This document shows positions 4,159 to 64,000 of a stretch of 64,000 nt of DNA, in pieces (the stretch's first letter is position 1; each line of letters starts with the position of its first letter). The DNA is from Candidatus Nomurabacteria bacterium (GTDB lineage: Bacteria > Patescibacteriota > Minisyncoccia > Phycocordibacterales > UBA9973). The stretch lies in the NCBI GenBank assembly GCA_943350875.1, contig CALRAL010000001.1, forward strand, positions 68,992 through 132,991, given 5' to 3'. The notes beneath the pieces were generated by a model, which saw nothing but the letters and a program-made list of their open reading frames with translations, ran no database searches and was not told the origin of the DNA. Position numbers and translations under genes: made by a program.

Positions 4159-5445
4159 ATGAAACTAAAAGAAATAATTAAAAAATTAAAGATAAAGAGG
4201 AGAATGATTGCGAGATTGGCAGCGATGCATTTTTATGGCAATCCTTCTTTAAAATTAAAGATTGTTGGCGTGACGGGGACAAATGGTAAAACTACAACTG
4301 CTACACTTTTGTACAAGATAGCCACAGCTTTGGGCTATAGGGCAGGGCTTATTGGCACTGTTGAGAATATAATTGCGGGAGAAAAGATATTGTCAGATGA
4401 CAATGCTCCGCAGACCACTCCCGACCCAATTTTCTTAAATAAATTACTTTCAAAGATGGTTGAGAAAGGATGTGAATATGTCTTTATGGAAGTCTCAAGT
4501 CATGCTATGGATCAAAACAGGGTGGCAGGGATAAACTTTACTGGAGGGATTTTTACAAATCTAACTCATGATCATTTGGATTATCATAAAAGTCTAGAGA
4601 ATTACTTTTTAGCAAAAAAGAAATTCTTCCAGATGTTGCCAAGTAGTGCTTTTGCTTTATCAAATGTTGATGATGAACATGGAGAGATGATGTTAGAAGG
4701 AATAAAGGCAAAGAAATTCCTTTATGGATTTAAGAAGGATGCTGATTTTAAGGGGGAAATTTTGAAACTTGATTTTAATGGGTTGGAAATGAATTTTAAT
4801 GGGGAAGTAATAAAAACTAAACTATTGGGTAAATTTAATGCCTATAATTTACTTTCAGTCTGGAGTGCTTGTAAACTACTTGGTTTTGATATGCCTGCCC
4901 GCAATGCTTTCAGTATAGCTGATGCAGGTGGGGAAAAAGTAAATAAAATTTTAGAAAATATAGAACCTCCAAGAGGCCGCTTCGACCATTTTCTTTCAAA
5001 AAGTGGAGTATTGGTAATTGTGGATTATGCTCACACTCCAGATGCGTTAGAGAAAATACTTTTGACTATAAAAGATATAAAAACAGAAAATGGATTATTG
5101 ATTTCTCTATTTGGTTGCGGAGGGGACAGAGATCCATTAAAAAGGAGGATTATGGGTAAAATTGGAGCAAATTTATCAGATATCGCTATTTTTACATCTG
5201 ACAATCCTCGTAGCGAGAACCCAGAGGACATCATTGCCGAGATGAAAACTGATTTATCTATGAATGATTCTAGAAAAGTTAAAATAATTGTGGATAGGCA
5301 TGAAGCTATAAAAGAGGCAGTAAAGGTAGCAAAACCTGGAGATATTATATTATGTGCTGGCAAAGGTCATGAGACCTATCAAGAGATAAAAGGCGCGAAG
5401 TATCATTTTAACGATATGGAAGAATTTAAGAAAGCGTATAATTAA
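4159..5445 (+). CDS. murE: UDP-MurNAc-tripeptide synthetase MurE (compact). It carries an in-frame palindromic insert.
   Basis: GVTGTNGKTTT Mur ligase P-loop, DYAHTPDAL and DNPRSENP (MurE signature). Confidence 0.85.
   Translation: MKLKEIIKKLKIKRRMIARLAAMHFYGNPSLKLKIVGVTGTNGKTTTATLLYKIATALGYRAGLIGTVENIIAGEKILSDDNAPQTTPDPIFLNKLLSKMVEKGCEYVFMEVSSHAMDQNRVAGINFTGGIFTNLTHDHLDYHKSLENYFLAKKKFFQMLPSSAFALSNVDDEHGEMMLEGIKAKKFLYGFKKDADFKGEILKLDFNGLEMNFNGEVIKTKLLGKFNAYNLLSVWSACKLLGFDMPARNAFSIADAGGEKVNKILENIEPPRGRFDHFLSKSGVLVIVDYAHTPDALEKILLTIKDIKTENGLLISLFGCGGDRDPLKRRIMGKIGANLSDIAIFTSDNPRSENPEDIIAEMKTDLSMNDSRKVKIIVDRHEAIKEAVKVAKPGDIILCAGKGHETYQEIKGAKYHFNDMEEFKKAYN
4894..4934 (+). repeat. GC-rich imperfect-palindrome element, family A, in frame inside murE. 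It encodes PARNAFSIADAGGE.
   Basis: cctgcccgcaatgctttcagtatagctgatgcaggtgggg; near-identical copies at 8477, 52615 and 63471. Confidence 0.8.
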
Positions 5446-5448
5446 ACT

Positions 5449-7122
5449 ATGCAAACAGAAACCAGGCAATGCAAAAAATGCAATCGAAGTTTTGTTCTAG
5501 AGCAAGACGATTTTTCTTTTTACGAAAAGATGAAAGTTCCTGTACCGAATATCTGCCCAGACTGTCGTTTTAAAATGAGGGCCATTTTTAGAAATGAACG
5601 TACTTTATATAATAGGACCTGTAATTTATGCAATCGCTCTATTATTACAATGTATAATCCGAATTCTCCTTACACTGTCTATTGTAATGACTGTTGGATT
5701 TCTGATAAATGGGATCCATATTCTTACGCTATGGATTATGATTCATCTAAATCTTTTTTTGAACAATTAAAAGAACTTATTATAAAAGTTCCAAAATCTG
5801 CCACTTATAGTAGTATTTCTGTTGGGGTGAATATCAACAGTGAATATGCTAATTTTGCAGGAGGTAATAAAGATGGGTATTTGATTTTTAATTGTGGACC
5901 AAATAATGAAAACATAGCTTATTCCCGCGGTGTAATAAAAAGTCGAGATGTTTTTGATGTTTATTATGCAGATGAAATAGAAAATACTTATGAAGGAGTT
6001 AGTGTTCATAAAAGTAATGGAATAGCTTGGGGTCAAAATGTATCCGATTGTATAGATTCACGTTTTATTTTGAATTGTTCAGGATGTCAGAATTGTTTTG
6101 GTTGTGTAAACTTAAGGCATAAATCTTATCATTTTTTTAATGAACCTCTTGAAAGAAATGAATGGTTAAAACGTGTATCAGAAATTTCTGGTAGTTTTAA
6201 AAAGACAGAAGAAATGAAAAAAAAGTTTACAGAATTCTCTCTTAAATTTCCATATCGAAGTAGTAATAACCTAAAAGTCACTAATTGTGAGGGAGATTAT
6301 ATTTTTGAATCAAAGAATTGTTATAAATGTTTTGAACTTTCTTTTTGTGAAGACATACGACATTCTTTTTCAGTAAAACGTGGTAAAGATTGTACTGATA
6401 TGATAGGTCATTGTCGCAGTTCAGAACTTCTATATAATGGAGTTGGAGTTGGGGCTGGCTCAAGGAATGTTATATGTTCATGGTGGGTTGAAAGTTCCCA
6501 AGATGTTCAATATTCATTTGCCACTCGTCAAAGTAATGATTGTGTAGGATGTGATGGTATAAAAAATGGTTCTTTTGTAATTCTAAATAAAAAATATACC
6601 AAAGAAGAATATCAAAAAATAAAAAATAATATTACAAAGGAGTTAAAAGATAAAAATATCTACGGTGATTTTTTCCCTACTGAACTTTCTTTCTTTGCTT
6701 ACAATGAAACAATTGGGCAAGATAATATGCCTATGACTAAAGAAGAAACAATCAAACAAGGTTTTCGTTGGGAAGATAATATTCAAAAAACAAAAAGAAA
6801 AGAAACCTTAAAGCCAGAGGAAATTCCAGATAATATAAGAGATGTATCAGATAATATTTTAAATGAAGTATTAGTTTGCATTAAATGTTCTAGAAATTAT
6901 CGGTTAATTAAACGCGAACTTGAATTTTACAAAAAAATGCTTATTCCTATCCCTAGAGAATGTTGGAATTGCCGTTTTACAAATCGCATAATTCGACGCG
7001 GGTCTTATAAATTCTTTGATCGTAAATGTTCAAATTGTAATAAGGATATACATACTAATTTGACGGAAAAGGTGGCACCAATAGTATATTGCGAGAAATG
7101 TTATCAGCAGGAAGTGATATAA
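5449..7122 (+). CDS. Large Cys-rich protein with tandem zinc-ribbon pairs at both termini (paralog 1 of 3)
   Basis: N-terminus CKKC...FYEKMKVPVPNICPDCR...LYNRTCNLC...VYCNDCW. C-terminus CIKC...FYKKMLIPIPRECWNCR...CSNC...IVYCEKCYQQEV. Central Cys-rich pseudo-repeats (NCSGCQNCFGCVNL...). Paralogs at 53207 and 59745. Confidence 0.8.
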   Translation: MQTETRQCKKCNRSFVLEQDDFSFYEKMKVPVPNICPDCRFKMRAIFRNERTLYNRTCNLCNRSIITMYNPNSPYTVYCNDCWISDKWDPYSYAMDYDSSKSFFEQLKELIIKVPKSATYSSISVGVNINSEYANFAGGNKDGYLIFNCGPNNENIAYSRGVIKSRDVFDVYYADEIENTYEGVSVHKSNGIAWGQNVSDCIDSRFILNCSGCQNCFGCVNLRHKSYHFFNEPLERNEWLKRVSEISGSFKKTEEMKKKFTEFSLKFPYRSSNNLKVTNCEGDYIFESKNCYKCFELSFCEDIRHSFSVKRGKDCTDMIGHCRSSELLYNGVGVGAGSRNVICSWWVESSQDVQYSFATRQSNDCVGCDGIKNGSFVILNKKYTKEEYQKIKNNITKELKDKNIYGDFFPTELSFFAYNETIGQDNMPMTKEETIKQGFRWEDNIQKTKRKETLKPEEIPDNIRDVSDNILNEVLVCIKCSRNYRLIKRELEFYKKMLIPIPRECWNCRFTNRIIRRGSYKFFDRKCSNCNKDIHTNLTEKVAPIVYCEKCYQQEVI

Positions 7123-7123
7123 A

Positions 7124-8521
7124 ATGAAAAATTATAAAGAATTTTTTAAGAGTAAAAAGATAACAGTTATGGGGCTAGGGATTTTAGGACGGGGGCTTGG
7201 ATATACGAGATTCTTAGCAGAATGCGGGGCTGATTTAATTGTGACGGATTTAAAAACAAAAGAACAACTCAAAACTTCAGTACAAGTATTAAAAAAATAT
7301 AAAAATATTAAATTTGTACTTGGGGAGCATCGATTAGAGGATTTTAGAGGTAGAGATATGATTATCAAATCCGCAGGGGTACCTCTTGATTCTATTTATA
7401 TCGCTGAAGCTAAAAAAAATCGAATTCCGATTAAGATGGATGTTTCTTTGTTTGTAAAATGTGCACCGAAAGTGATGTTGATAGGAGCAACAGGCACAAG
7501 GGGGAAATCAATGACAACTGCACTTATTTACGAAATTCTCAAAAAGAATGAGAAATTCTTAAAAAGAAAAATCTATATTGGAGGCAATGTTAGAGGCATA
7601 GCTACTTTGCCCTTATTAAAAAAGGTAAAAAAGAATGATATTTTGGTTTGTGAATTAGATTCTTGGCAATTACAAGGGTTTGGCGATGCGAAAATTTCTC
7701 CGCACATTTCTGTATTTACCAGTTTTATGCCGGATCATATGAATTATTATAAAGGTAGTATGAAAGATTATTTCAACGATAAAGCTAATATTTTCAAATA
7801 CCAAAATGAAAATGATTTTTTAATTGTTCGTCCAGATGTTCAGAAATTAATTCCTAAAAATATAAAGTCAAAGTTAATCGTAGTAAGCAAAAAAGAAGTT
7901 GAAAACTGGAATTTCATAGTACCCGGAGAGCATCAGAAGGAGAATCTGGCTTGTACAGTGGAAATGGCTAAAATCCTTGGTATTCCAATGCAATCTATCA
8001 AAAAAGCGATGGAGAAATTCAAAGGTTTAGAAGGGCGCTTACAACTTTTAAAAATATACAAGGGTATAAAGATTTATAATGACAACAATGCAACTACCCC
8101 AGAAGCAACAGTTGCAGGTATAGAAGCATTAATAACCGCTAGGAAGGACCTAGCGGTAGACCTAGCGGTAAAAAATATTATTTTGATTTGTGGGGGGGCA
8201 GATAAAAATCTTGATTTAGATAATTTTGTAAAAGTTGTGAATAAACGTTGTAAGGCTGTAATAATGATTCCAGGGACAGGGACAGAGAAGCTTATGAGTG
8301 AAAAGTTGAAAGTAGAAAGTTATAAAGTTGAAAGTTTAGAAGAAGCAATTAAAAAATCGTTAGGCCTTGCCTCACGACAGGATACCGTTCTTTTCTCCCC
8401 AGCGTTTGCTTCTTTTGGAATGTTTAATAATGAATATGAAAGGAATGATTTGTTTGTAAAATTAGTGAAGAAATTGCCTGCCCGCAATGCTTACAGCATA
8501 GCTGTTGCAGGCGGGAAATAA
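7124..8521 (+). CDS. murD: UDP-N-acetylmuramoylalanine--D-glutamate ligase MurD
   Basis: N-terminal GLGILGRGLGYTRFLAECGA Rossmann region, GATGTRGKS P-loop, Mur ligase C-domain. The C-terminal tail LPARNAYSIAVAGGK is encoded by a family A repeat. Confidence 0.8.
   Translation: MKNYKEFFKSKKITVMGLGILGRGLGYTRFLAECGADLIVTDLKTKEQLKTSVQVLKKYKNIKFVLGEHRLEDFRGRDMIIKSAGVPLDSIYIAEAKKNRIPIKMDVSLFVKCAPKVMLIGATGTRGKSMTTALIYEILKKNEKFLKRKIYIGGNVRGIATLPLLKKVKKNDILVCELDSWQLQGFGDAKISPHISVFTSFMPDHMNYYKGSMKDYFNDKANIFKYQNENDFLIVRPDVQKLIPKNIKSKLIVVSKKEVENWNFIVPGEHQKENLACTVEMAKILGIPMQSIKKAMEKFKGLEGRLQLLKIYKGIKIYNDNNATTPEATVAGIEALITARKDLAVDLAVKNIILICGGADKNLDLDNFVKVVNKRCKAVIMIPGTGTEKLMSEKLKVESYKVESLEEAIKKSLGLASRQDTVLFSPAFASFGMFNNEYERNDLFVKLVKKLPARNAYSIAVAGGK
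8477..8516 (+). repeat. Family A GC-rich palindromic element forming the C-terminal tail of murD
   Basis: cctgcccgcaatgcttacagcatagctgttgcaggcggga. Confidence 0.8.
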
Positions 8522-35756: not shown

Positions 35757-36785
35757 ATGTCAACAATATCATTTAAACCAAAACAAGTAACTAAAAAAAT
35801 AACGTCTCATCTGCAGGATCGCTCACGCGATGTGATCATGAGCCGTTTTGGGCTTAATGCTGATTCAGAGAAAAAAACTCTCGAAGATATCGGTAAGAAA
35901 TACAGCATCACTAGAGAGCGTGTACGTCAGATAGAGGAAGCAGCTCTGAATTCTATAAAGAAGTCCGAAGCTTATAAGTTTGAACAAATTGCTTTTAATG
36001 AATTAAAGCAATTTATAAATTCTCTTGGTTCTATTATTGCTGAACATGAATTACTACCAAACATTTCAAAAGATAAAAATACTCAGAACCATGTTCATTT
36101 CCATTTAGTATTGGGGGACTCTTTCAAAAGACATCACGAAGATGAACATTTTCATACTCGTTGGAGTGTAGATGATGAAATGGCAGAAAAAGTGCATGAA
36201 TCATTGAAGAAACTTTATGCATCTTTGAAAGATGAAGACCTTGTTCCTGAAACTGAAATGATAAAGAAATTCTTTGATCAAATGAAAGATGTTTCTGAGC
36301 AGTTTAAAAATGAAGAGATAGCTCGAAGGTGGCTCTCTATGTCGAAGACTATCTCCAAGAATCCTCTTGGAGAATGGGGTAAGGCAAGCTCTCCAAATAT
36401 AAATACTCGTGGAGTTAAAGACTATGCTTTCTTGGTAATGAGGAAACACGGTTCACCTATGCATTTCCGAGAAGTAGCGGATGCCATTTCCAAAACTTTT
36501 GGTAAGAAAACTCATTATGCTACTTGCCATAACGAGCTCATAAAAGATCCTCGTTTTGTGTTGGTTGGTAGGGGGCTTTATGCATTAGCAGAATGGGGCT
36601 ATAAAACCGGTATCGCTCGTGAAGTCATCCGTGATATTTTAAAGCGCGAAGGACCGCTTTCCAAAGAAGATGTAATAGAAAAAGTGATGAAAGAAAGATA
36701 TTTCAAGAAGAACACTATTTTGGTAAACCTTGTAAATCCTAAATTCTTCAAAAAGAACAAAAACGGACTTTATACTACTATTTAA
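35757..36785 (+). CDS. Protein with N-terminal sigma-70 region-4-like HTH; the remainder is uncharacterised
   Basis: LEDIGKKYSITRERVRQIEEAALNSIK. Confidence 0.45.
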   Translation: MSTISFKPKQVTKKITSHLQDRSRDVIMSRFGLNADSEKKTLEDIGKKYSITRERVRQIEEAALNSIKKSEAYKFEQIAFNELKQFINSLGSIIAEHELLPNISKDKNTQNHVHFHLVLGDSFKRHHEDEHFHTRWSVDDEMAEKVHESLKKLYASLKDEDLVPETEMIKKFFDQMKDVSEQFKNEEIARRWLSMSKTISKNPLGEWGKASSPNINTRGVKDYAFLVMRKHGSPMHFREVADAISKTFGKKTHYATCHNELIKDPRFVLVGRGLYALAEWGYKTGIAREVIRDILKREGPLSKEDVIEKVMKERYFKKNTILVNLVNPKFFKKNKNGLYTTI

Positions 36786-52599: not shown

Positions 52600-53238
52600 A
52601 TGCAACAAGATGAACCTGCCCGCAATGCTTTCAGCACAGCTGATGCAGGCGGGGAAATTAAAAAAGAGGAACAATTACCCGAAGAAAGCCCAGATTCCGA
52701 GGTTGTAGAGTTTGAATTCAATGAAGACGGGGAAGAGGATCTGAAAAAGACTTTAAAGAAGCTTCGGGCTGATTTGAAGGCTTGTAAAGCTGAAAAGGCA
52801 GAGTATTTGACCGGCTGGCAGAAAGAGCGAGCTGATTTTGTTAATTATAAAAAAGAGGAAGACGACAGGAAAACCATGTTTTCAGAATCAGTACGAGAGC
52901 GAATGCTCACTCGCTTTTTAAATGTGATGGATAGCTTCAATATGGCATTCCAAAACAAAGAAGCTTGGGAAAAAGTAGATGAGAACTGGCGTAAAGGTGT
53001 AGAATATATTCACAGCCAGTTCAACACTGTTTTTGAAGAATATGGAGTAAAAGAGATAGGTGAAGTGGGGGAGAGTTTTGATCCAAATATTCACCAGCCG
53101 GTAGAAATGATAAAAACCGACCAGAAAGATTCTGATCACAAAGTGGCTGTAGTTATCCAGAAAGGGTATAAACTTGGCGAGCGTGTTATCCGTCCGGCGA
53201 GAGTGAATGTTTATGAATATCATGAACAAAGAGAATAA
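52600..53238 (+). CDS. grpE: Nucleotide exchange factor GrpE (the N-terminus is built from a family A repeat)
   Basis: GrpE coiled-coil plus C-terminal beta domain; N-terminus MQQDEPARNAFSTADAGGEI. Confidence 0.85.
   Translation: MQQDEPARNAFSTADAGGEIKKEEQLPEESPDSEVVEFEFNEDGEEDLKKTLKKLRADLKACKAEKAEYLTGWQKERADFVNYKKEEDDRKTMFSESVRERMLTRFLNVMDSFNMAFQNKEAWEKVDENWRKGVEYIHSQFNTVFEEYGVKEIGEVGESFDPNIHQPVEMIKTDQKDSDHKVAVVIQKGYKLGERVIRPARVNVYEYHEQRE
52615..52653 (+). repeat. Family A GC-rich palindromic element at the grpE 5' end
   Basis: cctgcccgcaatgctttcagcacagctgatgcaggcgggg. Confidence 0.8.
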
Positions 53239-54922
53239 AACTTGTCAAAACTGTAAAAAAGATTTCACAATAGAACCTGATGATTTTTCATTTTATGAAA
53301 AAATAAAAGTCCCTCCACCGACTTTTTGTCCAGAATGTAGATTTCAACGTAGGTATGCTTGGAGAAATGAAATTACACTCTATCGAAGACCATGTGATTT
53401 GTGTGGAAAAAGTTCTGTTACAATTTACTCTCCAAAAAAATCTTATAAAGTATATTGTCCTAATTGTTGGTGGGGGGATGGATGGGATGCGAAGGAATCT
53501 TTTCAAGATTTTGACTTTTCACGTCCGTTTTTTGAACAATTTCAAGAACTTCAATTTAAAATTCCAAGAATAGCTCTTTTAACCAAAAATAGTGTTAATT
53601 CAGAATACACTAATCATTCAGGGGATAATAAAAATTGTTATATGTGTGTTTCTACTTTTTATTCTGAAAATATAATGTACTCAAATAATATTTGGGAAAA
53701 AGGGCAGGATTTATGTGATTGTACAATGGTGATAAAAAATGGAGTTTTGTCTTACGAATGTATAGATTCTTCTGATATTTATAATTGTCAGTTTTGTATA
53801 CTTTTAAAAAATTGTACTGATTGTTTTTATTGCTATGACTTGCATAATTGTCAAAATTGTTTTTTATCTTTTAATTTAAGAAACAAAAATTATATGATTT
53901 TAAATCAACAATATTCTAAAGAAGAATATTTTAAGAAAATTAAAAATTTTAATCTAAATTCCAATAATTCAAGACAAAATCTTTATAAGCAATTTTTAGA
54001 TTTAATGAAAAATAAAGCATTGCATAAATTTGCTATTATTGAGAAATCGGTAAATTCTTTTGGAAATATGCTTTATAATTCAAAAAACGCTAATCAGGTT
54101 TTTGACTCAGACCATGTAGAAGATACCAAATACGGCATAATACTACCTGGTGTCCAAAATTCGATGGATGTTTGCCATGTTGGTTTTAATTGTGAACTTA
54201 CCTATGAAAGTCATGCTATTGTAAGATCATCTCGTGTTTTATTTTCTCATTTATCCTATGATAATAATGATATTCAGTATTGTGATTCGTGTCATTATAG
54301 TGATAATTTGTTTGGTTGTTGTGGAATAAAGAAAGGAAGTTATATGATTTTTAATAAAAAATATTCCAAAGAAGAATATCTAAAGTTAAAAGAAAAAATA
54401 ATTGAACACATGAAAAGAACAGGAGAGTATGGAAATTTCTTTCCACCCAAACTTTCACCATTTGGCTACAATGAAAGCCAAGCTCAAGTTTATTTACCAA
54501 TGGCAAAAGAAAAAGCTTTATCTTTTGGTTTTAATTGGGAAGATGATATGCCCGGAACCCACGGAAAAGAAACTACGGATTCAAAAAATATATCGGATAA
54601 TATTTTTGAAGTTTTAGATTCCATAACTAATGAAATATTAAAATGTGAAGATTGTGGTAAAAATTACAATATAATTCTAGCAGAATTACAATTTTATAAA
54701 AATGAAAATATTCCTATTCCACATTTTTGTTACAAATGTCGTTATAAAAAAAGAATAGCATTAAGATTACCAAGAAAACTTTGGCACAGGTCTTGTATGT
54801 GTGATAAAATTGGTCATTTTCATGGAGATGATAAATGCAATGTAGAATTTGAGACGAGTTATGCTCCAGAAAGGCCAGAAATAGTGTATTGTGAAAAATG
54901 TTATCAGCAAGAGATTTATTAA
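53207..54922 (+). CDS. Large Cys-rich protein with tandem zinc-ribbon pairs at both termini (paralog 2 of 3); the start probably lies at ATG 53213-53219 and overlaps the grpE stop
   Basis: CQNCKKDFTIEPDDFSFYEKIKVPPPTFCPECRFQRR...LYRRPCDLC...VYCPNCWWGDGWD. C-terminus CEDC...FYKNENIPIPHFCYKCR...YAPERPEIVYCEKCYQQEIY. Confidence 0.8.
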   Translation: MFMNIMNKENKTCQNCKKDFTIEPDDFSFYEKIKVPPPTFCPECRFQRRYAWRNEITLYRRPCDLCGKSSVTIYSPKKSYKVYCPNCWWGDGWDAKESFQDFDFSRPFFEQFQELQFKIPRIALLTKNSVNSEYTNHSGDNKNCYMCVSTFYSENIMYSNNIWEKGQDLCDCTMVIKNGVLSYECIDSSDIYNCQFCILLKNCTDCFYCYDLHNCQNCFLSFNLRNKNYMILNQQYSKEEYFKKIKNFNLNSNNSRQNLYKQFLDLMKNKALHKFAIIEKSVNSFGNMLYNSKNANQVFDSDHVEDTKYGIILPGVQNSMDVCHVGFNCELTYESHAIVRSSRVLFSHLSYDNNDIQYCDSCHYSDNLFGCCGIKKGSYMIFNKKYSKEEYLKLKEKIIEHMKRTGEYGNFFPPKLSPFGYNESQAQVYLPMAKEKALSFGFNWEDDMPGTHGKETTDSKNISDNIFEVLDSITNEILKCEDCGKNYNIILAELQFYKNENIPIPHFCYKCRYKKRIALRLPRKLWHRSCMCDKIGHFHGDDKCNVEFETSYAPERPEIVYCEKCYQQEIY

Positions 54923-55020: not shown

Positions 55021-55326
55021 ATGGTATTTGTTTATACTACTTGTGTTGATAAAAACGAAGCAGAGACTCTAGGCAAGCTCATCATAGATAAAAAGTTGGG
55101 TGCGTGTGTTGATTATTGGCCAATTAACTCTATGTATAATTGGAAGGGGGCTTTGAGGCATTTGTCCCAAGTGATGCTTTCAATAGCTACTTTTGAGAAT
55201 CATTTGGAAGATGTAAATGATCTTATTTCCAAGCATCATAGTTATTCTGTGCCAATGATCGCTGGAGTGGATGTTCGCAGAATCAATCGCGCTTATCGGG
55301 AATGGATGATGGCTGAAGTTGTCTAG
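55021..55326 (+). CDS. cutA: Divalent-cation tolerance protein CutA
   Basis: MVFVYTTCVDKNEAETLGKLIIDKKLGACV... Confidence 0.7.
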   Translation: MVFVYTTCVDKNEAETLGKLIIDKKLGACVDYWPINSMYNWKGALRHLSQVMLSIATFENHLEDVNDLISKHHSYSVPMIAGVDVRRINRAYREWMMAEVV

Positions 55327-55333
55327 ATTATTT

Positions 55334-55870
55334 TTAATTTTTTATCGCTTCTAAAAAAGCGAGTCTAGTTTCTTCGTCTAATTTATCTGTAACTATTATC
55401 ATAAGTTCTGTAGTGAACCCCAAATCTTTTTTAATATTTATAAATAGATTTTCGTAAGGGTAAGGGGAGATCCAAGCAGAATTCTTTAAACATACAAAGC
55501 CAGCTTTTTTTAATAAATAACGAAGTGATTCACGTTCACTTTTTCTACTCTCTGGAATATCCAAAAGTATAATTCTCCAGAATCCGTCCCAGACAGTGTT
55601 CACTAGAGTAGTGTCATCTTCTAATTTCAAAGTATTTATTTTCTTTTTTCCTAGAGTTGTGAGGCGGGCATAGTTATTTTGCCCGGAATATGAGTTTTCC
55701 ACAAGTCCTGCCTCCCGGAGACTTTTTAAGGAGCGGGTAATAGCGTATCTAGCCCCCTCCTTGTTGAGGAGGGGGTTGGGGGTGGTGATTAGTTTTTCTT
55801 GCAATTCTGGCACAGAAACAGCTGTCTTTTCACCTAGTATTTTCAATATCTTTTTGGAATAGTTGCTCAT
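55334..55870 (-). CDS. PaaX-like winged-helix regulator (paralog of 2977-3522) carrying an in-frame GC hairpin insert
   Basis: WDGFWRIILLDIPESRKSERESLRYLLKKAGFVCLKNSAWISPYPY. Confidence 0.55.
   Translation of the reverse strand: MSNYSKKILKILGEKTAVSVPELQEKLITTPNPLLNKEGARYAITRSLKSLREAGLVENSYSGQNNYARLTTLGKKKINTLKLEDDTTLVNTVWDGFWRIILLDIPESRKSERESLRYLLKKAGFVCLKNSAWISPYPYENLFINIKKDLGFTTELMIIVTDKLDEETRLAFLEAIKN
55751..55786. repeat. Family C-like GC-rich hairpin inside the regulator CDS. It encodes TTPNPLLNKEG.
   Basis: CCCCCTCC-TTGTTGA-GGAGGGGG perfect hairpin followed by ttgggggtggtg. Confidence 0.7.
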
Positions 55871-56042: not shown

Positions 56043-57932
56043 ATGAAAATAATAGGTATAGATTTGGGTACAACAAATTCAGCTGTCGCTATCATAGAAG
56101 GAGGACAGCCAAAGATTATTGAGAATATAGAAGGGAACCGCACGACTCCTTCGGTTGTGGCTATCGCGAAAAATGGGGATAGATTAGTAGGGCTCCTTGC
56201 AAAAAGGCAAGCTGTGACGAATCCAGAAAATACTGTATATGGTATCAAGCGTTTTATGGGTCATAATTTTGATGATCCCGAAGTACAGAAAGATTTAAAG
56301 AATGCATCTTTCAAAGTTCAAAAATCAACTAATGGCGGAGTGGAAGTAAAAATAGGAGATAAGTGGATGCGTCCAGAAGAAATATCTGCGATGATTTTAG
56401 CGAAAATAAAAGCGGACGTAGAAGTTAAGACGGGAGAGAAGATCACTGAAGCAGTCATCACTGTGCCAGCGTATTTCAATGATGCTCAGAGAAAGGCTAC
56501 AAAAGACGCAGGACAAATAGCAGGACTCGATGTGAAGCGTATTATCAATGAGCCGACGGCTGCAGCACTTGCTTATGGTTTTAATAAAAAGAAAAATGAA
56601 AAGATAGTGGTGTATGACTTTGGAGGAGGCACATTTGACGTATCCGTGCTTGAAATAGGGGATGATGTTATAGAAGTAAAGTCCACAGATGGGGACAGTC
56701 ACCTCGGAGGTCGTGATATCGATCACAAGATCATAAATTGGATTGCGGAAGAATTCAAAAAGACTTCAGGAGTAGATGTACGTGGAGATAAACTTGCTCT
56801 TCAACGTCTTGATGAATCTGCAGAAAAAGCAAAAATAGAGCTTTCTACTGCCGTGGAAACTGAAATAAATATTCCATTTATTACTTCCACTCCACAAGGT
56901 CCTCAACACTTACTTTTGAAAATGACTCGAGCTCAACTTGAATCTCTTACTGATGAATATGTTTCTCGTTCCATAGAGATAACAAAGCGCGCGATGAGTG
57001 CTTCCGGTTTTAAAATGGAAGAAATGAATGAAATAATCATGGTTGGAGGTCAGACTAGAATGCCAAAGATCGTAGAAGAAGTGAAAAAGCTTTTTGGCAA
57101 GACTCCAAACCTTTCTATCAATCCCGATGAAGTCGTAGCTCTCGGTGCTGCGGTGCAAGCGGGAGTATTACAAGGAGATGTGCGCGACGTGCTTCTTCTT
57201 GATGTCATACCTCTTTCACTGGGGATAGAGACATTAGGAGGAGTGGCGACAAAGTTAGTTGAAAGAAATACAACTATTCCTTCTTCAAAATCCCAAGTAT
57301 TCTCAACTGCGGCTGACAATCAAACTTTGGTAGAAATACATATCGTCCAAGGTGAACGTCCTATGGCGTCTGACAACAAATCTCTCGGTAGATTTATTTT
57401 GGATGGAGTGCCACCTGCTCCTCGCGGTATTCCGCAAGTGGAAGTTTCTTTTGATGTGGATGCAAATGGTATCTTGAATGTGACTGCAAAGGATAAAGCT
57501 TCTGGTAAGACTCAATCTATTAAAATAGAGGCAAGTTCAGGATTAAAAGATGAGGATATTAAAAAGATGCAAGCAGATGCAGAAATACATGCTGAAGAAG
57601 ATAAAAAGAAAAGAGAAAATGTCGATATAAAAAACACTGCGGAGATGATCATGTACACAGCAGAAAAAGCTTTGAAAGATAATGATGCAAAAATTCCGGA
57701 AGATTTGAAGAAGACTGTAAATGATAAAATAACTGCTCTACGTGGTTTAAAAGATGGTTCAGACATAGAGGCTATTAAAAAGGCCACCGAAGAATTGTCT
57801 TCTGAAATGTCAAAAATCGGTGAAGCTATGGCAAAAGCTGGTGCTACTCCAGATGAAGGACCAGCTACTCCTCCTGAAGAACAACCAACTGAAGTCCGTG
57901 ATGCTGATTCCAAAGAAGAAGACAAGAAATAA
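56043..57932 (+). CDS. dnaK: Molecular chaperone DnaK (Hsp70)
   Basis: [36 protein letters not shown]... Confidence 0.95.
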
Positions 57933-59744: not shown

Positions 59745-61469
59745 ATGCAATCTGAGCCTAGAGTTTGTCAAAATTGTAAAAAAGAATTCACAATCGAATC
59801 AGACGATTTTGGATTTTATGAGAAAATAAAAGTTCCTCCACCGACTTTTTGTCCAAATTGTAGAGCTCAACGTCGAAATGCTTGGAGGAATACTTTTACT
59901 TTATATTCTCGAAAATGTGATTTGTGTGCAAAATCAGTCATTTCTCTTTATGCTCCAGATTCTGAAATAATAGTTTATTGTAATAAATGTTGGTGGAGTG
60001 ATAAGTGGGATCCAAAATCTTATGCTCAAGATTATGACTTTTCTAAACCATTTTTTGCGCAATTTATAGATTTTGTTAAAAAAGTTCCACACATTTCAGT
60101 AGTCAATGATAACGGGATTGCTAGTTTGAACTGTGAATATACCCATGATTGGTGGTTTTCAAAGAACTGCTATATGGCATTTTCTGGCTGGTATGTGGAG
60201 AATGTTATGTATAGTTATTTTATAACTGCTGGTAGAAATATTATGGATACTATGATCAATATGGCTGAATCAGAATACTTATATGAATGTATAAATTGTT
60301 CGCATGGTTATAATGTTAAATATTCACAATATGCTGGAGCTTGTATTGATTCTCAATTTCTTTATGATTGTCGAGACTGCTCAAATTGTTTTATGTCTTT
60401 TGGACTTAGAAATAAAAAATATTTTTTTAAAAATCAGCAATATACGAAAGGAGAGTATGAAAAAATATTAAATAGTTATAAACTTGAAACTTTTTCTGGT
60501 GTAAAAAAAGCGCAAGAAGAATTTGATAAACTCATTTTAAATTATCCTCGTAGGTATGCTTGGCATAAACAAAATAAAGATTGTTCTGGTGATGTGATTT
60601 CTTATAGCAAAAATACTAAAAACTGTTTCATTGCTAAAAGATGTGAGAATTGTAGATATTCAGAATATCCCACTAAGGACAAGGATTGTTATGATATAAC
60701 GATGACTGGTGAAACATCTGAATGTTATGAAGGAGTTGTTGTGGATCATTCGCAGTTAAACTTTTTTGGAATTTTCTCTGTTAAAAGTCAGGATATAAGA
60801 TATACGCAACATTGTCACTTTTCAAAACATCTTTTTGGTTGTGTTGCGCTTCGTAGTAATAGTTATTGTATTTTCAATAAGCAATATACAAAAGAAGAAT
60901 ATGATACTTTAGTAAGAAAAATTATTGAGCAAATGAATGAAATGCCTTATGTGGATAAAAATGGTTGTGAATATCGTTATGGGGAATTTTATCCAATTGA
61001 ACTTTCTTTGTTTGGATATAATGAAACTCTTGCATGTGAACAGATTCTACTTTCAAAGGAAGAAGCTCTAAATAAAGGTTATAAGTGGCAAGACAATTTA
61101 CAACGAACAACTAAGAAAGAGACATTATTACCACAAAATATTCCAGATTCAATTAAAGATATTAGTGATAATGTCATACAAGAAATACTTAGTTGTGTTG
61201 AATGTAAAAGGAATTATAAAATTGTTCAAAATGAATTAATTTTTTATAAAAAAATGCAGATTTCTATTCCAAGGAAATGTTTTTATTGTCGTCATGCAAA
61301 TAGAATAAAACACACAAATCCTTTTAAACTTTGGCATCGATCTTGCATGTGCGACAAAACAAATCATGGGCATGAAGGAAATTGTCTAAACGAATTTGAA
61401 ACAAGCTATGCTCCAGAAAGACCTGAGATAGTTTATTGTGAAAAATGTTATCAGCAAGAGATTTATTAG
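59745..61469 (+). CDS. Large Cys-rich protein with tandem zinc-ribbon pairs at both termini (paralog 3 of 3)
   Basis: CQNCKKEFTIESDDFGFYEKIKVPPPTFCPNCRAQRR...LYSRKCDLC...VYCNKCWWSDKWDP. C-terminus CVECKRNYKIVQNELIFYKKMQISIPRKCFYCR...YAPERPEIVYCEKCYQQEIY. Confidence 0.8.
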   Translation: MQSEPRVCQNCKKEFTIESDDFGFYEKIKVPPPTFCPNCRAQRRNAWRNTFTLYSRKCDLCAKSVISLYAPDSEIIVYCNKCWWSDKWDPKSYAQDYDFSKPFFAQFIDFVKKVPHISVVNDNGIASLNCEYTHDWWFSKNCYMAFSGWYVENVMYSYFITAGRNIMDTMINMAESEYLYECINCSHGYNVKYSQYAGACIDSQFLYDCRDCSNCFMSFGLRNKKYFFKNQQYTKGEYEKILNSYKLETFSGVKKAQEEFDKLILNYPRRYAWHKQNKDCSGDVISYSKNTKNCFIAKRCENCRYSEYPTKDKDCYDITMTGETSECYEGVVVDHSQLNFFGIFSVKSQDIRYTQHCHFSKHLFGCVALRSNSYCIFNKQYTKEEYDTLVRKIIEQMNEMPYVDKNGCEYRYGEFYPIELSLFGYNETLACEQILLSKEEALNKGYKWQDNLQRTTKKETLLPQNIPDSIKDISDNVIQEILSCVECKRNYKIVQNELIFYKKMQISIPRKCFYCRHANRIKHTNPFKLWHRSCMCDKTNHGHEGNCLNEFETSYAPERPEIVYCEKCYQQEIY

Positions 61470-61520: not shown

Positions 61521-63581
61521 ATGGAACTTCCAGAATTACCCCCAAATAAAGACCTTACATATATTGGCCAAACGACTTTTAGGGATAAAAATACACTTTT
61601 TGGTATAAAGCGTAAAGACAGGCGTCAGCATGTGTATATCTTGGGTAAGTCAGGTACCGGTAAATCGGCGCTGATGTTTAATATGATTATCCAAAATATC
61701 CAGAATGGCGATGGTGTTTGTATGGTGGATCCGCACGGGGAGAATGTCGAAGCTATTTTATCTGCTATTCCTCCACACAGAATGAAAGATGTAGTTTATT
61801 TTAATCCAGCGGACACTGATTTTCATATTGGTTTCAATGTGCTCGAACTCATTGATCCAAAATATAAACATTTAGTGGCGTCAGGACTGATGGGAATATT
61901 TACCAAGATTTGGGCCAATGCATGGAGTGCTCGAATGGAATACATTTTAAATAATACTATCTTGGCACTACTAGATACTCCAGGGTCCACGCTTCTAGGT
62001 ATCCCTCGTATGTTAGTGGATAAAGATTATCGTCAGAAAATAATTTCAAATTTAAAAGACCCTGTTATTAAAGCTTTTTGGGTGCATGAATATGAAGCAT
62101 GGCAGGAGAAATTCAGGAATGAAGCTATCGCACCGATTCAAAATAAAGTCGGACAATTCCTTTCTACTTCTATCATCAGAAATATTGTCGGGCAAGCAAA
62201 AAGCACGATAGATATTTTTAATATTATGAATGAAGGGAAGATTTTCTTGGTAAACGTTTCTAAAGGACGTATCGGGGAGGACAATTCTTCTCTCTTAGGA
62301 GGAATGATTATTACTAAGATTCAGCTAGCTGCTATGGAGCGCGTGCGTATTTCAGAAGAGAATAGGAAAGATTTTTATCTATATGTCGATGAATTTCAAA
62401 ACTTTGTGACTGAAGCTTTTGCTGGGATTTTGTCTGAAGCTAGAAAATACAGGTTGAATTTAACTGTAGCGCATCAATACACGGCGCAACTGGTGGTGGA
62501 TAAAAACTCAAGTGTCAGGGATGCTATTTTCGGTAACGTGGGTACAATGATTGTTTTTAGAGTGGGTGCAGATGATGCTAAATTTTTAGAAAAAGAGTTT
62601 GAGCCGGAATTTATTCCTCAAGACATAGTGAACTTGCCAAATTTCCGTATTTATTTAAAGTTGATGATAGATGGTACTACTTCTAGACCATTTTCTGCCA
62701 AGACTTTGCCTCCAATGGTGAAATCTGGTAATAAACAAGTAGAAGACGAAGTGATCAGATCTTCTAGGAATTTATATTGCAAGCCAAAGGAAGTGGTAGA
62801 GAGAGAAATAAATAATTGGAGTGGCATGTCCTTGGGTAATGAAAATGATCCAGGTAGTATGGAAAAATTCGAAGCAGTTTGTTCTATTTGCAAGAAAAAC
62901 ACAACAGTTCCATTTAAACCAGAGCCAGGTAGACCTGTGTATTGTAGAGACTGTATAGCAAAGATGAAATCAGGAGAATTACAACCAGTAAAGGGTTCAA
63001 TGAATCAGATAAAATATGATGAATCAAAATTCTTCAAACCCTTGGCAGATTTAGGAATCGAATTTGAAAATAAAGAAGTGCAAAATAATTTGCAACCACA
63101 AAAACCTCAGAAAACCGGTATATTTTCTTCTATTAAAAAAGTTTTTCAAAAGCCATCTTTACACCCCCATAGTTCTTTTAAAGAAAAAACAGCTATTTTG
63201 GCTCAAACTAATCAGATAAAAGCTTCGCCCGTAGGTCTACAGCCGAGGGAAATTCCAAAAGAAAATCTAACTTTGAAAGAAATTTTAAATAAAACTTTAG
63301 CTGAAAAAGAGAAAGTTGTTCCAACTCCTATTTCTTTGAGTGAATTAAAACCCAAAATAGAACCAATAATACCAAATCATACTTCGAACGATCGCTCTGC
63401 GAGCCCAGAAGAGATGGATAAATTAAAAAATCTTATTTCTACTACAAAAGTAGAGGAAGTAAAGAAAGAACCTGCCCGCAATGCTTCGCAAAGCGATGCA
63501 GGCGGGGAAATCAAAGAAGAATCTCAAAAACAGTTGGTTAAAGAAGTGCCAGAAGATGTCTTAAAAAAGATTTTAGAGTAA
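61521..63581 (+). CDS. FtsK/HerA/TraD(VirD4)-superfamily P-loop ATPase (soluble) with C-terminal zinc ribbon
   Basis: Walker A ILGKSGTGKSALMFNMI, Walker B FYLYVDEFQNF, then ARKYRLNLTVAHQY. C-terminal CSICKK...PEPGRPVYCRDC. Family A repeat-encoded segment EPARNASQSDAGGEI near the C-terminus. Confidence 0.65.
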   Translation: MELPELPPNKDLTYIGQTTFRDKNTLFGIKRKDRRQHVYILGKSGTGKSALMFNMIIQNIQNGDGVCMVDPHGENVEAILSAIPPHRMKDVVYFNPADTDFHIGFNVLELIDPKYKHLVASGLMGIFTKIWANAWSARMEYILNNTILALLDTPGSTLLGIPRMLVDKDYRQKIISNLKDPVIKAFWVHEYEAWQEKFRNEAIAPIQNKVGQFLSTSIIRNIVGQAKSTIDIFNIMNEGKIFLVNVSKGRIGEDNSSLLGGMIITKIQLAAMERVRISEENRKDFYLYVDEFQNFVTEAFAGILSEARKYRLNLTVAHQYTAQLVVDKNSSVRDAIFGNVGTMIVFRVGADDAKFLEKEFEPEFIPQDIVNLPNFRIYLKLMIDGTTSRPFSAKTLPPMVKSGNKQVEDEVIRSSRNLYCKPKEVVEREINNWSGMSLGNENDPGSMEKFEAVCSICKKNTTVPFKPEPGRPVYCRDCIAKMKSGELQPVKGSMNQIKYDESKFFKPLADLGIEFENKEVQNNLQPQKPQKTGIFSSIKKVFQKPSLHPHSSFKEKTAILAQTNQIKASPVGLQPREIPKENLTLKEILNKTLAEKEKVVPTPISLSELKPKIEPIIPNHTSNDRSASPEEMDKLKNLISTTKVEEVKKEPARNASQSDAGGEIKEESQKQLVKEVPEDVLKKILE
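63471..63506 (+). repeat. Family A GC-rich palindromic element (shortened variant) inside the ATPase C-terminal region
   Basis: cctgcccgcaatgcttcgcaaagcgatgcaggcggg. Confidence 0.75.
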
Positions 63582-63750: not shown

Positions 63751-64000
63751 ATGACCAATAAGTCTTCAAATTCAAATTTACACAAAGCAAACAAGGCAAA
63801 GAAAGATGAGTTTTATACTCAACTTATTGATATTGAAAAAGAGCTAAAACATTACAAGGAACAATTTAGAGGTAAGGTTGTGTATTGTAATTGTGACGAT
63901 CCTTTTGAAAGTAATTTTTTCAAATATTTTGCCTCAAATTTTAATGCCTTAAAATTGAAAAGGCTTATCGCCACAAGTTACAAACCATCACCGATTGCCA
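63751..64000 (+). CDS. Putative adenine-specific DNA methyltransferase, N-terminal fragment (runs off the window)
   Basis: KKDEFYTQLIDIEKELKHY...VVYCNCDDPFESNFFKYF resembles EcoRI-methylase-like N-termini as I remember them; from memory only. Confidence 0.4.
   Translation, partial: MTNKSSNSNLHKANKAKKDEFYTQLIDIEKELKHYKEQFRGKVVYCNCDDPFESNFFKYFASNFNALKLKRLIATSYKPSPIA

Follow-up and report, generated by a model that had tools for sequence, protein, structure and literature searches.

Our analysis shows that three genes in the 64-kb stretch of DNA under study (the window) encode soluble cytoplasmic proteins of a family specific to Patescibacteria. The family is very large yet uncharacterised, and it occurs only in these ultra-small bacteria (CPR). 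Its biochemical function is unknown, and its genes usually lie in tandem arrays beside two orphan VirD4/TrwB-like ATPases within the grpE-dnaK-dnaJ stress operon. The three proteins have a common architecture, in which a zinc-ribbon pair is followed by beta-solenoid half A, a helical insert, half B, a linker of ~65 aa and a second ribbon pair. A duplicated period-3 beta-solenoid that is lined with Cys and flanked by two heterotypic zinc-ribbon pairs is a new arrangement. Patescibacteria have genomes of no more than ~1 Mb, in which a large share of the lineage-specific genes has no explanation. At that genome size the largest arrays, which reach at least 12 paralogs and in one case occupy more than 20 kb, are a major investment.

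Three paralogs and their family

The three genes are located as follows.

5449..7122, + strand: family paralog 1, intact ORF of 557 aa, p1-type orthogroup, between murE and murD
53207..54922, + strand: family paralog 2, intact ORF of 571 aa, its start overlapping the grpE stop
59745..61469, + strand: family paralog 3, intact ORF of 574 aa, followed after 51 nt by the long ATPase

Three ORFs of 557-574 aa with a shared architecture had been reported in an earlier note on this DNA, and their coordinates, strand and lengths all hold; for paralog 2, the ATG at 53222 may be the true start. Pairwise identity among the three is ~37-45% (38-40% between paralog 1 and the other two, about 45% between paralogs 2 and 3), which excludes an assembly duplication and agrees with the 35-45% that the note had estimated by eye when making the same point. 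A tblastn search detected no fourth family copy in the window. Each protein contains 31-36 Cys (5.6-6.3%), and the AF2 model of paralog 1 reached a pLDDT of 84.9 and a pTM of 0.85. Signal peptides and TM segments are absent from the family proteins.

Clustering at 50% identity (E ≤ 1e-30) gives no fewer than 2,105 family clusters. All named or labelled sources are Patescibacteria except one low-GC contig, that of locus L043, which is labelled Burkholderiales, has a GC content of 30.9% and is probably a misbinned CPR contig. Orthologs of paralog 1 were found at 54-79% identity across Nomura-, Lipton-, Ryan-, Jorgensen- and Brennerbacteria, and the p1-type orthogroup is the best conserved group, with one copy per array elsewhere. 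In these orthologs pN was 0.13-0.30 and pS 0.71-0.84; judged from such coding sequences, the family is under strong purifying selection. The saturated synonymous and low non-synonymous change, together with the finding that 93% of internal copies elsewhere are full length, bears out the earlier proposal of a real, functional multi-copy family.

We could also show that the paralogs are ancient orthogroups, not recent copies. Pairs from the same locus have a median identity of 38.7% and never exceed 60%, and 157/166 have a closer relative in another genome, at a median identity of 58.8%. For most array members of other genomes, identity to any window paralog is only ~42%. A fixed order of orthogroups along the arrays is not conserved, and the window paralogs correspond only loosely to fixed operon positions. 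An origin from mobile elements was ruled out, since no relatives were found in the phage, plasmid and IMG/VR collections searched.

Every member is annotated 'hypothetical protein', and the core has no Pfam model. Pfam and NCBIfam scans returned nothing over the core and only sub-threshold matches to the ribbons, a sequence-profile search of the PDB with the paralogs gave 0 matches, and none of the three matched the PADLOC anti-phage defence models. The best Foldseek match in the PDB had E = 1.2, with only generic beta-solenoids in the structure searches, and Foldseek against BFVD returned only local ribbon matches. No paper describing the family was found in the literature on CPR/Parcubacteria Cys-rich or zinc-ribbon families and PF26449. 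The earlier view that neither family nor fold can be named is thus sustained, with zf_Tbcl and zf_Tbcl_2 reached only below threshold at the ribbons. Furthermore, none of the outcomes that would have refuted it (a match to a characterised family, frameshifts or no conservation outside this genome) was met.

Zinc-ribbon pairs around a duplicated beta-solenoid

In paralog 1 the domains are arranged as follows.

5461..5712, + strand: N-terminal ribbon pair; sub-threshold Pfam matches to PF13451 (residues 5-45) and PF23477 (residues 51-85)
5791..6183, + strand: beta-solenoid half A and cap (residues ~115-245), with a period-3 Cys/Ser/Val ladder
6253..6639, + strand: beta-solenoid half B and cap (residues ~269-397), homologous to half A
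6661..6858, + strand: linker domain (residues ~405-470), YGxFFPxxLSxFxYNET...G(F/Y)xWxD...KET...; pLDDT 88-97, entropy 1.99 bits
6868..7113, + strand: C-terminal ribbon pair; hhalign to the N-terminal module E = 3e-24, Cys 86-99% conserved

The N-terminal module consists of ribbon 1 (C8/C11...C36/C39, CxxC-x24-CxxC, zf_Tbcl type), a helix carrying R40/R44/R48, and ribbon 2 (C58/C61-x17-C79/C82, CxxC-x17-CxxC type). At the C-terminus we found ribbon 3 (C477/C480-x24-C505/C508), a helix carrying R509/R513/R517, and ribbon 4 (C527/C530-x17-C548/C551), within which paralogs 2 and 3 have an insertion. The two modules are homologous (BLAST E = 9e-11; hhalign probability 99.6%, E = 3e-24), confirming the idea that the C-terminus is a second copy of the N-terminal module. 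The CxxC-x24-CxxC + R knuckles of ribbons 1 and 3 are 86-100% conserved in 462 members. The Arg stripes at i, i+4 and i+8 on the helix after each zf_Tbcl-type ribbon are 85-100% conserved (N-terminal stripe 88-97%, R509 100%), and Cys conservation is 97-99% in ribbon 1 and 71-89% in ribbon 2. Both modules are basic (pI 8.7 and 9.3) and enclose a mildly acidic core.

In ribbon 2 the four Cys occur together in 71% of members, compared with 32% expected under independence, and where not all four are Cys the pattern is 'C---' or '----'. Ribbon 3 behaves alike, and ribbons 2 and 3 can be dispensed with in 14-29% of members. A ribbon that is lost goes as a whole unit, as a metal site would, and this all-or-none loss of Cys supports the prediction that the four ribbons carry the signature of structural Zn sites.

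By profile score the ribbons fall short of known models. PF13451 (zf_Tbcl) gave 16.6, 13.6 and 17.5 bits for paralogs 1-3 (gathering threshold 24), and for window paralogs PF23477 gave 14.2 and 14.6 bits (threshold 27) and TIGR04272 11.8 bits (threshold 36). About a quarter of the orthologs listed carry a precomputed PF23477 tag and a few a PF13451 tag. The motif criterion for zf_Tbcl is met, with two CxxC ~24 residues apart, a conserved aromatic/Pro and a C..CR ending, and the CxxC-x17-CxxC spacing of PF23477/TIGR04272 is met by ribbons 2 and 4 of paralog 1. As far as profiles and motifs can tell, the ribbons are divergent relatives of zf_Tbcl, not clean members. zf_Tbcl and zf_Tbcl_2 (PF23477, TIGR04272) are small stand-alone or appended 'probable treble clef' domains of unknown function; the family ribbons are of the same types, with the x24/x17 spacing and the F..FY..P..C..CR motif, but they form two heterotypic pairs that bracket a ~380-aa core (solenoid plus linker) covered by no model. 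Zn binding of a CxxC-x17-CxxC domain has been detected by ICP-MS in small proteins of Methanosarcina mazei (PMC12704099).

The earlier note had placed four predicted zinc ribbons on either side of a 'Cys-ladder' core. The CxxC spacing and the sub-threshold zf_Tbcl/zf_Tbcl_2 matches at those positions uphold the ribbons and their bracketing of a Cys-rich core, but the ladder is solenoid packing, not metal sites. The Cys-rich columns of residues 156-228 all lie in one phase with a strict 3-residue period, (C-x-x)n, instead of the irregular ~12-aa repeats that had been described. Half A ends in C210-x2-C213-x2-C216-F-G-C219...N-x-x-Y-x-K-E-E-W/Y followed by a helix, and half B in C365-F-G-C368...NKKYTKEEY, again followed by a helix; in a 50-sequence alignment (A2) C368 is 94% conserved and G367 is invariant. 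The halves (~140-248 and ~288-397) align with an hhalign probability of 99% and E = 5e-18. The core is duplicated internally, which explains its two LxNKKY(T/S)KEEY blocks.

The core Cys are lost singly and independently and are swapped for L, V or S, and because of this behaviour we regard them as packing residues, not ligands. The 'Cys ladder' is the inward-pointing packing of a very narrow beta-solenoid. A ferredoxin-like [4Fe-4S] or other intra-core metal site at the CxxCxxCxxC of residues 210-219 was excluded, as C210/213/216/219 are not lost together (all Cys in 58% of members, compared with 55% expected under independence). The Cys co-occurrence statistics, without pairwise co-variation, likewise excluded a disulfide ladder in the core. 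TmAFP is a narrow beta-solenoid antifreeze protein. The criterion for a disulfide-laddered beta-helix of the TmAFP/CfAFP type, co-varying paired Cys in a secreted protein, was not met, nor was that for LbH transferases and gamma-carbonic anhydrases, a hexapeptide-repeat signature with catalytic/metal residues. Among the closest known systems, the narrow beta-solenoids are the ice-binding/antifreeze proteins LpIBP (3ult) and CfAFP (1m8n), LbH transferases and adhesin heads. Column entropy is 1.66-1.99 bits in the ribbons, both solenoid caps and the linker, which it shows to be the constant parts, and 2.43-2.71 bits in the solenoid bodies and insert; the paralogs differ from one another in their solenoid faces and helical insert.

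The adjoining ATPases and a proposed role

The genes that recur beside the family are represented in the window by the following.

52600..53238, + strand: grpE, Pfam GrpE E = 4.5e-38; opens the stress super-operon in which the family resides
55021..55326, + strand: CutA1, Pfam CutA1 E = 5.6e-25; repeatedly within or at the end of family arrays
55334..55870, - strand: PaaX-like wHTH regulator, Pfam PaaX_M; divergent from dnaK and constant in the conserved layout
56043..57932, + strand: dnaK ORF, directly upstream of the long ATPase in related genomes
61521..63581, + strand: long orphan VirD4/TrwB/TraD-like P-loop ATPase of 686 aa; Pfam TrwB_AAD_bind, DUF87, TraG-D_C

The tandem arrays, the adjoining VirD4/TrwB-like ATPase and the grpE-dnaK-dnaJ operon are context absent from the earlier note. 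The window ATPase meets the criterion for a TrwB/TraG-type P-loop NTPase domain (TrwB_AAD_bind 37.2 bits, cutoff 20.5; TraG-D_C 26.0, cutoff 22; DUF87 33.3). Against TrwB in the PDB it reached only E = 6e-4, over the Walker A region; NCBIfam equivalog models were all far below their cutoffs, and in PADLOC only the generic HerA and mad8 ATPase models were hit. No TM anchor was found in this protein, which starts at the P-loop domain and has a maximum 19-residue Kyte-Doolittle average of 1.12; the median maxima are 1.13 for long and 1.00 for short forms. The C-terminal ribbon of the window ATPase (residues 448-483) is CxxC-x17-CxxC, like family ribbons 2 and 4, and passes the thresholds with 50.7 bits for zf_Tbcl_2 in Pfam and 52.5 bits in NCBIfam. 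This ribbon is present in 80/80 long ATPases, and the short ATPase is without it.

An ATPase was found in 31-32 of the 81 family-anchored loci, and 47 of 48 ATPase ORFs were co-oriented with the nearest family gene, 25 lying within 300 bp. Reciprocally, ATPase-anchored loci had a family gene ≤300 bp downstream in 46/66 cases and ≤3 kb in 55/66, and the long-to-short ATPase pair bracketed 1-3 family genes in 36/49 loci and none in 13/49. The ATPase-anchored loci belong to one lineage (67-75% identity to the query) and are not phylogenetically independent. Some 60% of the full-size family-anchored loci lack an ATPase within 10 kb, and paralog 1 in the window is far from any ATPase. The adjacency is frequent, not obligatory. 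Recurrent neighbours of the ATPase are chaperone genes, family genes, the second ATPase, the PaaX-like gene and TM197; as far as the neighbouring ORFs were scanned against Pfam, the recurrent clusters included no identifiable T4SS component. After the ATPase at the window end there is a methyltransferase-like ORF and not a further family gene. DUF8128 (the 'TM453' membrane protein, 36888-38249) was considered as a membrane partner; it is linked to the ATPase and the arrays in some lineages only, and its AF2 model is poor (pLDDT 58.6).

All functional inference rests on gene neighbourhood and conservation patterns; there are no interaction, expression or biochemical data. With a confidence that falls slightly short of even, we propose that the paralogs are cytoplasmic adaptor or scaffold subunits for the orphan ATPases, built from constant handles and variable bodies. 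They would be alternative or co-assembling subunits, whose constant basic ribbon 'handles' would dock onto a common partner, most likely the adjoining pair of TM-less VirD4/TrwB-like ATPases, the long form of which has the same CxxC-x17-CxxC ribbon. Binding of a polyanion, for instance nucleic acid on which the ATPases act, is perhaps a further possibility; that nucleic acid may be bound is inferred only from the basic ribbons and the Arg stripes. The variable solenoid bodies would give each paralog its own target, and joint expression of the whole set with GrpE, DnaK and DnaJ would make up a stress-linked module.

VirD4/TrwB/TraD coupling proteins and their adaptors (TraM-TraD, IcmSW-DotL) offer a parallel, in that the family genes lie co-oriented beside a TrwB_AAD_bind/TraG-D_C ATPase like adaptor or substrate genes. 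However, the family has no similarity to any known adaptor, and the neighbouring ATPases lack the N-terminal TM anchor, come as a long/short pair inside the dnaK operon and are not beside virB4/T4SS genes. Only 148 of 5,713 Patescibacteria T4CPs lie near virB4 (PMC12102498), and the linkage of the family to TM-less VirD4-like ATPases gives a testable handle on the role of the ~5,700 orphan T4CP homologues reported there. In a bolder reading, possible but on balance unlikely, the family and the long and short ATPases would form an unrecognised Patescibacteria machine. A ring ATPase pair exapted from type IV coupling proteins would there work with the ancient zinc-ribbon-capped paralogs as interchangeable substrate receptors, in the remodelling or translocation of protein or nucleic acid and under co-regulation with DnaK, DnaJ and GrpE. 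If true, this would explain the purpose of thousands of orphan T4CP genes in reduced genomes.

Other neighbours and alternative readings

The copies had been said to lie directly 3' of murE, grpE and a P-type ATPase on the same strand, and the distances agree: 3 nt separate the end of murE from paralog 1 (and 1 nt separates paralog 1 from murD), paralog 2 and the grpE stop overlap by 32 nt, and the end of a heavy-metal, P1B-type ATPase lies 23 nt upstream of paralog 3. Proximity to murE and to the P-type ATPase is accidental and lineage-specific, since in the 81 family-anchored loci Mur ligases are present in only 3-4 and a P-type ATPase in 2, adjacent in none. The conserved partners of the family are the TM-less VirD4/TrwB-like ATPase pair and the DnaK operon, not murE or the P-type ATPase.

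The recurring gene order is S9-GrpE-FAM-PaaXlike-DnaK-longATPase-FAM-shortATPase-DnaJ, with the PaaX-like gene in 49/80 and dnaK in 58/80 ATPase-anchored loci. GrpE abuts or overlaps a family gene in all six GTDB loci that contain GrpE, and in 15/20 metagenome loci one or more family genes separate GrpE from DnaK. This embedding suggests a lineage-specific extension of the stress/proteostasis module, but it could reflect no more than a site of high expression and stable synteny. DnaJ and Hsp33 are examples of proteins with Cys-rich Zn modules. The overlap of paralog 2 with the grpE stop and the recurrence of DnaK and DnaJ as neighbours would fit zinc-dependent holdases or co-chaperones whose partners are DnaK, DnaJ and GrpE instead of the ATPases, or demanding DnaK clients that are merely co-expressed. 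Like DnaJ-type Cys-rich zinc-finger co-chaperones, the family has Zn-type Cys-rich modules encoded in the grpE-dnaK-dnaJ operon; unlike them, it lacks both J-domain and CxxCxGxG repeats, and it resembles them neither in sequence nor by profile; nor is there any similarity to Hsp33. Chaperone genes are missing from loci with large arrays such as L012, L033 and L059, and one chaperone role would leave 3-12 ancient paralogs with divergent surfaces unexplained, and we consider such a role improbable.

Treble-clef and Zn-ribbon domains often bind nucleic acids. The basic modules and their conserved Arg stripes would also suit free-standing nucleoid or RNA organisers, in which ribbons at the ends of a rigid rod clamp DNA or RNA independently of the ATPases. 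We give this reading little credence, as it leaves the tight co-oriented ATPase adjacency unexplained and no match to a known nucleic-acid-binding family was found.

Export of the proteins as effectors or surface proteins for an epibiotic lifestyle seems very unlikely. On this view the basic C-terminal module would be the part that the T4CP-like ATPases recognise, and disulfides would form in the Cys ladder once it is outside the cell. The proteins have neither of the expected export features (signal peptide, TM segment), the core Cys lack the pairwise co-variation expected of disulfide partners, and four intracellular-type Zn ribbons would be unusual cargo. The paralogs are ancient, under strong purifying selection and without recent expansions, no VirB4 or channel genes are among the recurrent neighbours, and the ATPases are without the membrane anchor of true T4CPs.

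Two further readings seem remote. Storage, buffering or trafficking of Zn or another divalent cation draws on the high Cys number, the P-type ATPase directly upstream of paralog 3 and CutA1, which is embedded in arrays (8/81 loci, in 6/8 ≤130 bp from a family gene, for example in L001, L005 and L055); the independently varying core Cys with their hydrophobic replacements leave at most four sites in ~560 aa, two of the ribbons are dispensable, and the P-type ATPase is rare and never adjacent elsewhere, so that this is scarcely tenable. A bactofilin-like beta-helix polymer in the cell wall or division cytoskeleton carries no more weight with us, its case being the beta-solenoid core, the tight packing of paralog 1 between murE and murD and an MreB-like gene in at least one family locus (L059); the MreB/DnaK cluster is found in 15 loci, in most of them as DnaK.

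Three paralogs with constant ends and a variable beta-solenoid body

We found that the three cysteine-rich ORFs of the earlier note are all intact and sit exactly where it had placed them:

5449-7122, + strand, paralog 1, intact ORF of 557 aa
53207-54922, + strand, paralog 2, intact ORF of 571 aa
59745-61469, + strand, paralog 3, intact ORF of 574 aa

Paralogs 2 and 3 aligned end to end with paralog 1 at 38-40% identity and share ~45% identity with each other; tblastn detected no fourth family copy in the window. Cysteine makes up 5.6-6.3% of their residues. The neighbours named in that note were also correct: gaps of 3 and 1 nt separate paralog 1 from murE upstream and murD downstream, the end of grpE with its stop runs 32 nt into paralog 2, and a 23-nt gap separates the heavy-metal P-type ATPase from paralog 3.

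The N-terminal module is genuinely repeated at the C-terminus (BLAST E = 9e-11; hhalign probability 99.6%, E = 3e-24), and the core is itself duplicated, with residues ~140-248 matching ~288-397 (hhalign probability 99%, E = 5e-18). An AlphaFold2 model of paralog 1, computed from an alignment of 50 sequences, was confident (pLDDT 84.9, pTM 0.85) and gave this layout:

residues 1-95, N-terminal ribbon pair
residues 103-113, helix
residues ~115-232, beta-solenoid half A
residues 236-264, helices
residues ~270-380, beta-solenoid half B
residues 385-401, helix
residues 405-470, well-predicted linker domain
residues 475-557, C-terminal ribbon pair

Ribbons 1 and 3 carry CxxC-x24-CxxC and the zf_Tbcl motif. 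In paralog 1, ribbons 2 and 4 match CxxC-x17-CxxC exactly, a ribbon type for which zinc binding was demonstrated in small proteins of M. mazei (PMC12704099). With pI values of 8.7 and 9.3 the ribbon modules are basic; the core is mildly acidic. Over an alignment of 462 family members, the ribbon cysteines were conserved as follows:

ribbon 1, 97-99%
ribbon 4, 98-99%
ribbon 3, 86-99%
ribbon 2, 71-89%

Ribbons were lost only as whole units; ribbon 2 was CCCC in 71% of members compared with 32% expected under independence, the remainder being 'C---' or '----'. This all-or-none loss indicates that the ribbons behave like metal sites, and each protein has up to four that bear the signature of structural zinc sites. 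The core cysteines were mostly 20-60% conserved and exchanged with S, V, A or G. Their best-conserved cluster, C210/213/216/219, was all-cysteine in 58% of sequences (expectation 55%), and members that had lost one cysteine carried L, V or S there. The ladder repeats strictly every 3 residues, autocorrelation being positive at each multiple of 3, and the ~12-aa repeat proposed earlier was not borne out. From this conservation, exchange, co-occurrence and periodicity, we read the core cysteines as packing residues that point into a very narrow solenoid. On this reading they are neither Fe-S or zinc ligands nor disulfide pairs.

Outside the cysteines, conservation was highest in two arginine stripes (i, i+4, i+8) on the helices after ribbon 1 (R40/R44/R48, 97/95/88%) and ribbon 3 (R509/R513/R517, 100/97/85%), in the CFGC...N-x-x-Y-(T/S)-K-E-E-Y caps and in the linker domain. 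Column entropy distinguished constant parts (ribbons, caps and linker, 1.66-1.99 bits) from diversifying ones (solenoid bodies and helical insert, 2.43-2.71 bits). The family protein is soluble and contains a narrow beta-solenoid in duplicate; its ends are constant and its body is variable.

Distribution and ancestry of the family

Pfam recognized only the ribbons of the window paralogs (zf_Tbcl and zf_Tbcl_2, all sub-threshold). NCBIfam and PADLOC scans gave no meaningful match, a PDB sequence-profile search gave 0 matches, and Foldseek found no relative in PDB (best E = 1.2) or BFVD (local ribbon matches only), so the protein still belongs to no family that can be named, as first reported. 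Treble-clef/zinc ribbons and beta-solenoids are already known as fold types. Because none of the libraries and papers searched describes this family, its architecture or its gene-neighbourhood system, and no member comes with a function, we rate it as new both as a family and as a system, with function inferred only from context.

A word-index search returned more than 3,697 relatives; the best 120 were all ~555 aa, annotated 'hypothetical proteins', and came from Nomura-, Lipton-, Ryan-, Jorgensen- and Brennerbacteria or unclassified Patescibacteria. When 1.84 billion representatives were searched exhaustively with a profile, 5,108 clusters matched at E ≤ 1e-3, and 2,105 passed E ≤ 1e-30; the best 150 listed were all near full-length (523-602 aa). 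At least 562 stretches among GTDB species representatives encode relatives. The 79 retrieved GTDB loci are Patescibacteria/Paceibacterota MAGs, and the lone 'Burkholderiales' label belongs to a contig with 30.9% GC. No relatives were found in phage, plasmid or IMG/VR collections.

Among paralog 1 orthologs synonymous change was saturated (pS 0.71-0.84) and pN was only 0.13-0.30, and 333 of 359 internal family copies were full length. These data indicate that the genes are real and constrained, in line with the real function argued for earlier. Split or truncated ORFs (26/359 internal copies, ~7%; loci L021, L080, L139 and others in other genomes), such as 390+189 aa and 444+113 aa, are either occasional pseudogenes in arrays or MAG assembly errors. 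Same-locus pairs had a median identity of 38.7%, none above 60%, and a closer relative existed in another genome for 157/166 (median 58.8%). The paralogs are ancient.

Linkage to coupling-protein-like ATPases and the DnaK system

Family genes are arranged in tandem arrays: at least two copies occur within ~20 kb at 50/81 loci, and one array (L012) holds at least 12. A TrwB_AAD_bind/TraG-D_C/DUF87 ATPase, the ortholog of window ORF 61521-63581 (the long ATPase), is the commonest non-family neighbour, at 31-32 of the 81 family-anchored loci. These ATPase ORFs were co-oriented with the nearest family gene in 47/48 cases and lay within 300 bp of it in 25. A reciprocal test took the ATPase as anchor and used an independent metagenome collection: of 66 loci with room for one, 46 had a family gene within 300 bp downstream and 55 had one within 3 kb. 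DnaK was present at 58/80 ATPase-anchored loci, whose consensus order (<, reversed) is S9-GrpE-FAM(0-3)-PaaXlike(<)-DnaK-long ATPase-FAM(0-3)-short ATPase-DnaJ-TM197...CysRS(<), where FAM is a family gene.

The long and short ATPases are ~46% identical. A C-terminal CxxC-x17-CxxC ribbon is present in 80/80 long forms compared with 0/49 short forms, and no transmembrane anchor was found in either. The family is operonically linked to two coupling-protein-like ATPases without membrane anchors and to the DnaK system, and the ATPases fit the class of orphan type IV coupling proteins of Patescibacteria, which are not encoded with a type IV secretion system (PMC12102498). In related genomes (loci L085-L164, e.g. 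L136, L148, L154; also L009, L021) the short ATPase is ~500 aa and lies immediately upstream of dnaJ, which is followed by a conserved protein of ~197 aa with multiple TM segments and no Pfam match. The window contains neither the short ATPase nor dnaJ.

We propose that the paralogs would act as adaptor or scaffold subunits. The conserved basic handles (ribbon, arginine stripe and linker) would dock on a shared partner, either the ATPases, where the long form's homologous ribbon may be the contact, or a polyanion, for instance nucleic acid, and the divergent solenoid faces would give target specificity. This model as a whole, with function inferred only from context, is plausible but falls slightly short of probable; we consider it somewhat more likely that the family and the ATPases are functional partners than that the paralogs play the specific part of adaptors. 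A DnaK-linked holdase, co-chaperone or client, and an autonomous nucleic-acid binder, are each unlikely. An exported effector is more doubtful still; no transmembrane segment or signal-like N-terminus was found in family proteins. A metal buffer or a bactofilin-like cytoskeleton is hardly credible.

Window layout and minor elements

The window is a rearranged form of the consensus, S9-GrpE-paralog 2-CutA1-PaaXlike(<)-DnaK-P-type ATPase-paralog 3-long ATPase. The position of paralog 1 between murE and murD is a relocation; in a closely related locus (L009) its ortholog follows the long ATPase. As Mur ligases and P-type ATPases are neighbours at only 3-4/81 and 2/81 loci, respectively, both adjacencies are incidental. 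CutA1 recurs within family arrays (8/81 loci). Further window features are:

35757-36785, Sigma70_r4 + HARE-HTH gene, upstream of DUF8128
36888-38249, DUF8128 (PF26449), 453 aa, N-terminal hydrophobic region, predicted long helices
55334-55870, - strand, PaaX-like wHTH (PaaX_M/Cas2-like domain)
57964-59721, heavy-metal P1B-type ATPase
63780-64000, ORF running off the window end (MTNKSSNSNLHKANKAKKDEFYTQLIDIEKEL...VVYCNCDDPFESNFFKYF)

The PaaX-like gene is divergent and upstream of dnaK in 49/80 related loci. It may regulate the grpE-dnaK operon; that region of the window showed no hrcA. The P1B-type ATPase has SPC, not CPC, in its TM region and lacks an N-terminal metal-binding domain, a trait of the Co/Zn/Fe-type P1B-4 subgroup. 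The last ORF, ~200 bp past the long ATPase, looks by eye like a DNA methyltransferase; it occupies the position of family genes, short ATPase and dnaJ in related genomes, suggesting an insertion or rearrangement.

DUF8128 has ~4,900 Patescibacteria relatives and is always preceded by the Sigma70_r4 + HARE-HTH protein. The pair lies directly ahead of ATPase/family arrays in some lineages (loci L001, L005, L016, L055). In the window (35.7-38.2 kb) and close relatives it lies apart from them, followed in the window by YceG, MnmA, MgtC and AlaRS. The AlphaFold2 model of DUF8128 was poor (pLDDT 58.6).

A GC-rich 39-nt palindrome, CCTGCCCGCAATGCTTxCAGxAxAGCTGxTGCAGGxGGG, has three window copies (0 expected; genome 35% GC) and a degenerate one:

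4894-4932, inside murE, in-frame
8477-8515, 3' end of murD, in-frame
52615-52653, 5' part of grpE, in-frame
near 63.4 kb, degenerate copy (PARNASQSDAGGE), ATPase tail

The element resembles the Rickettsia palindromic elements, which insert into ORFs. Its product is PARNA(F/Y)S(I/T)A(D/V)AGG, and its hairpin has a folding energy of -17 kcal/mol (z = -1.5).
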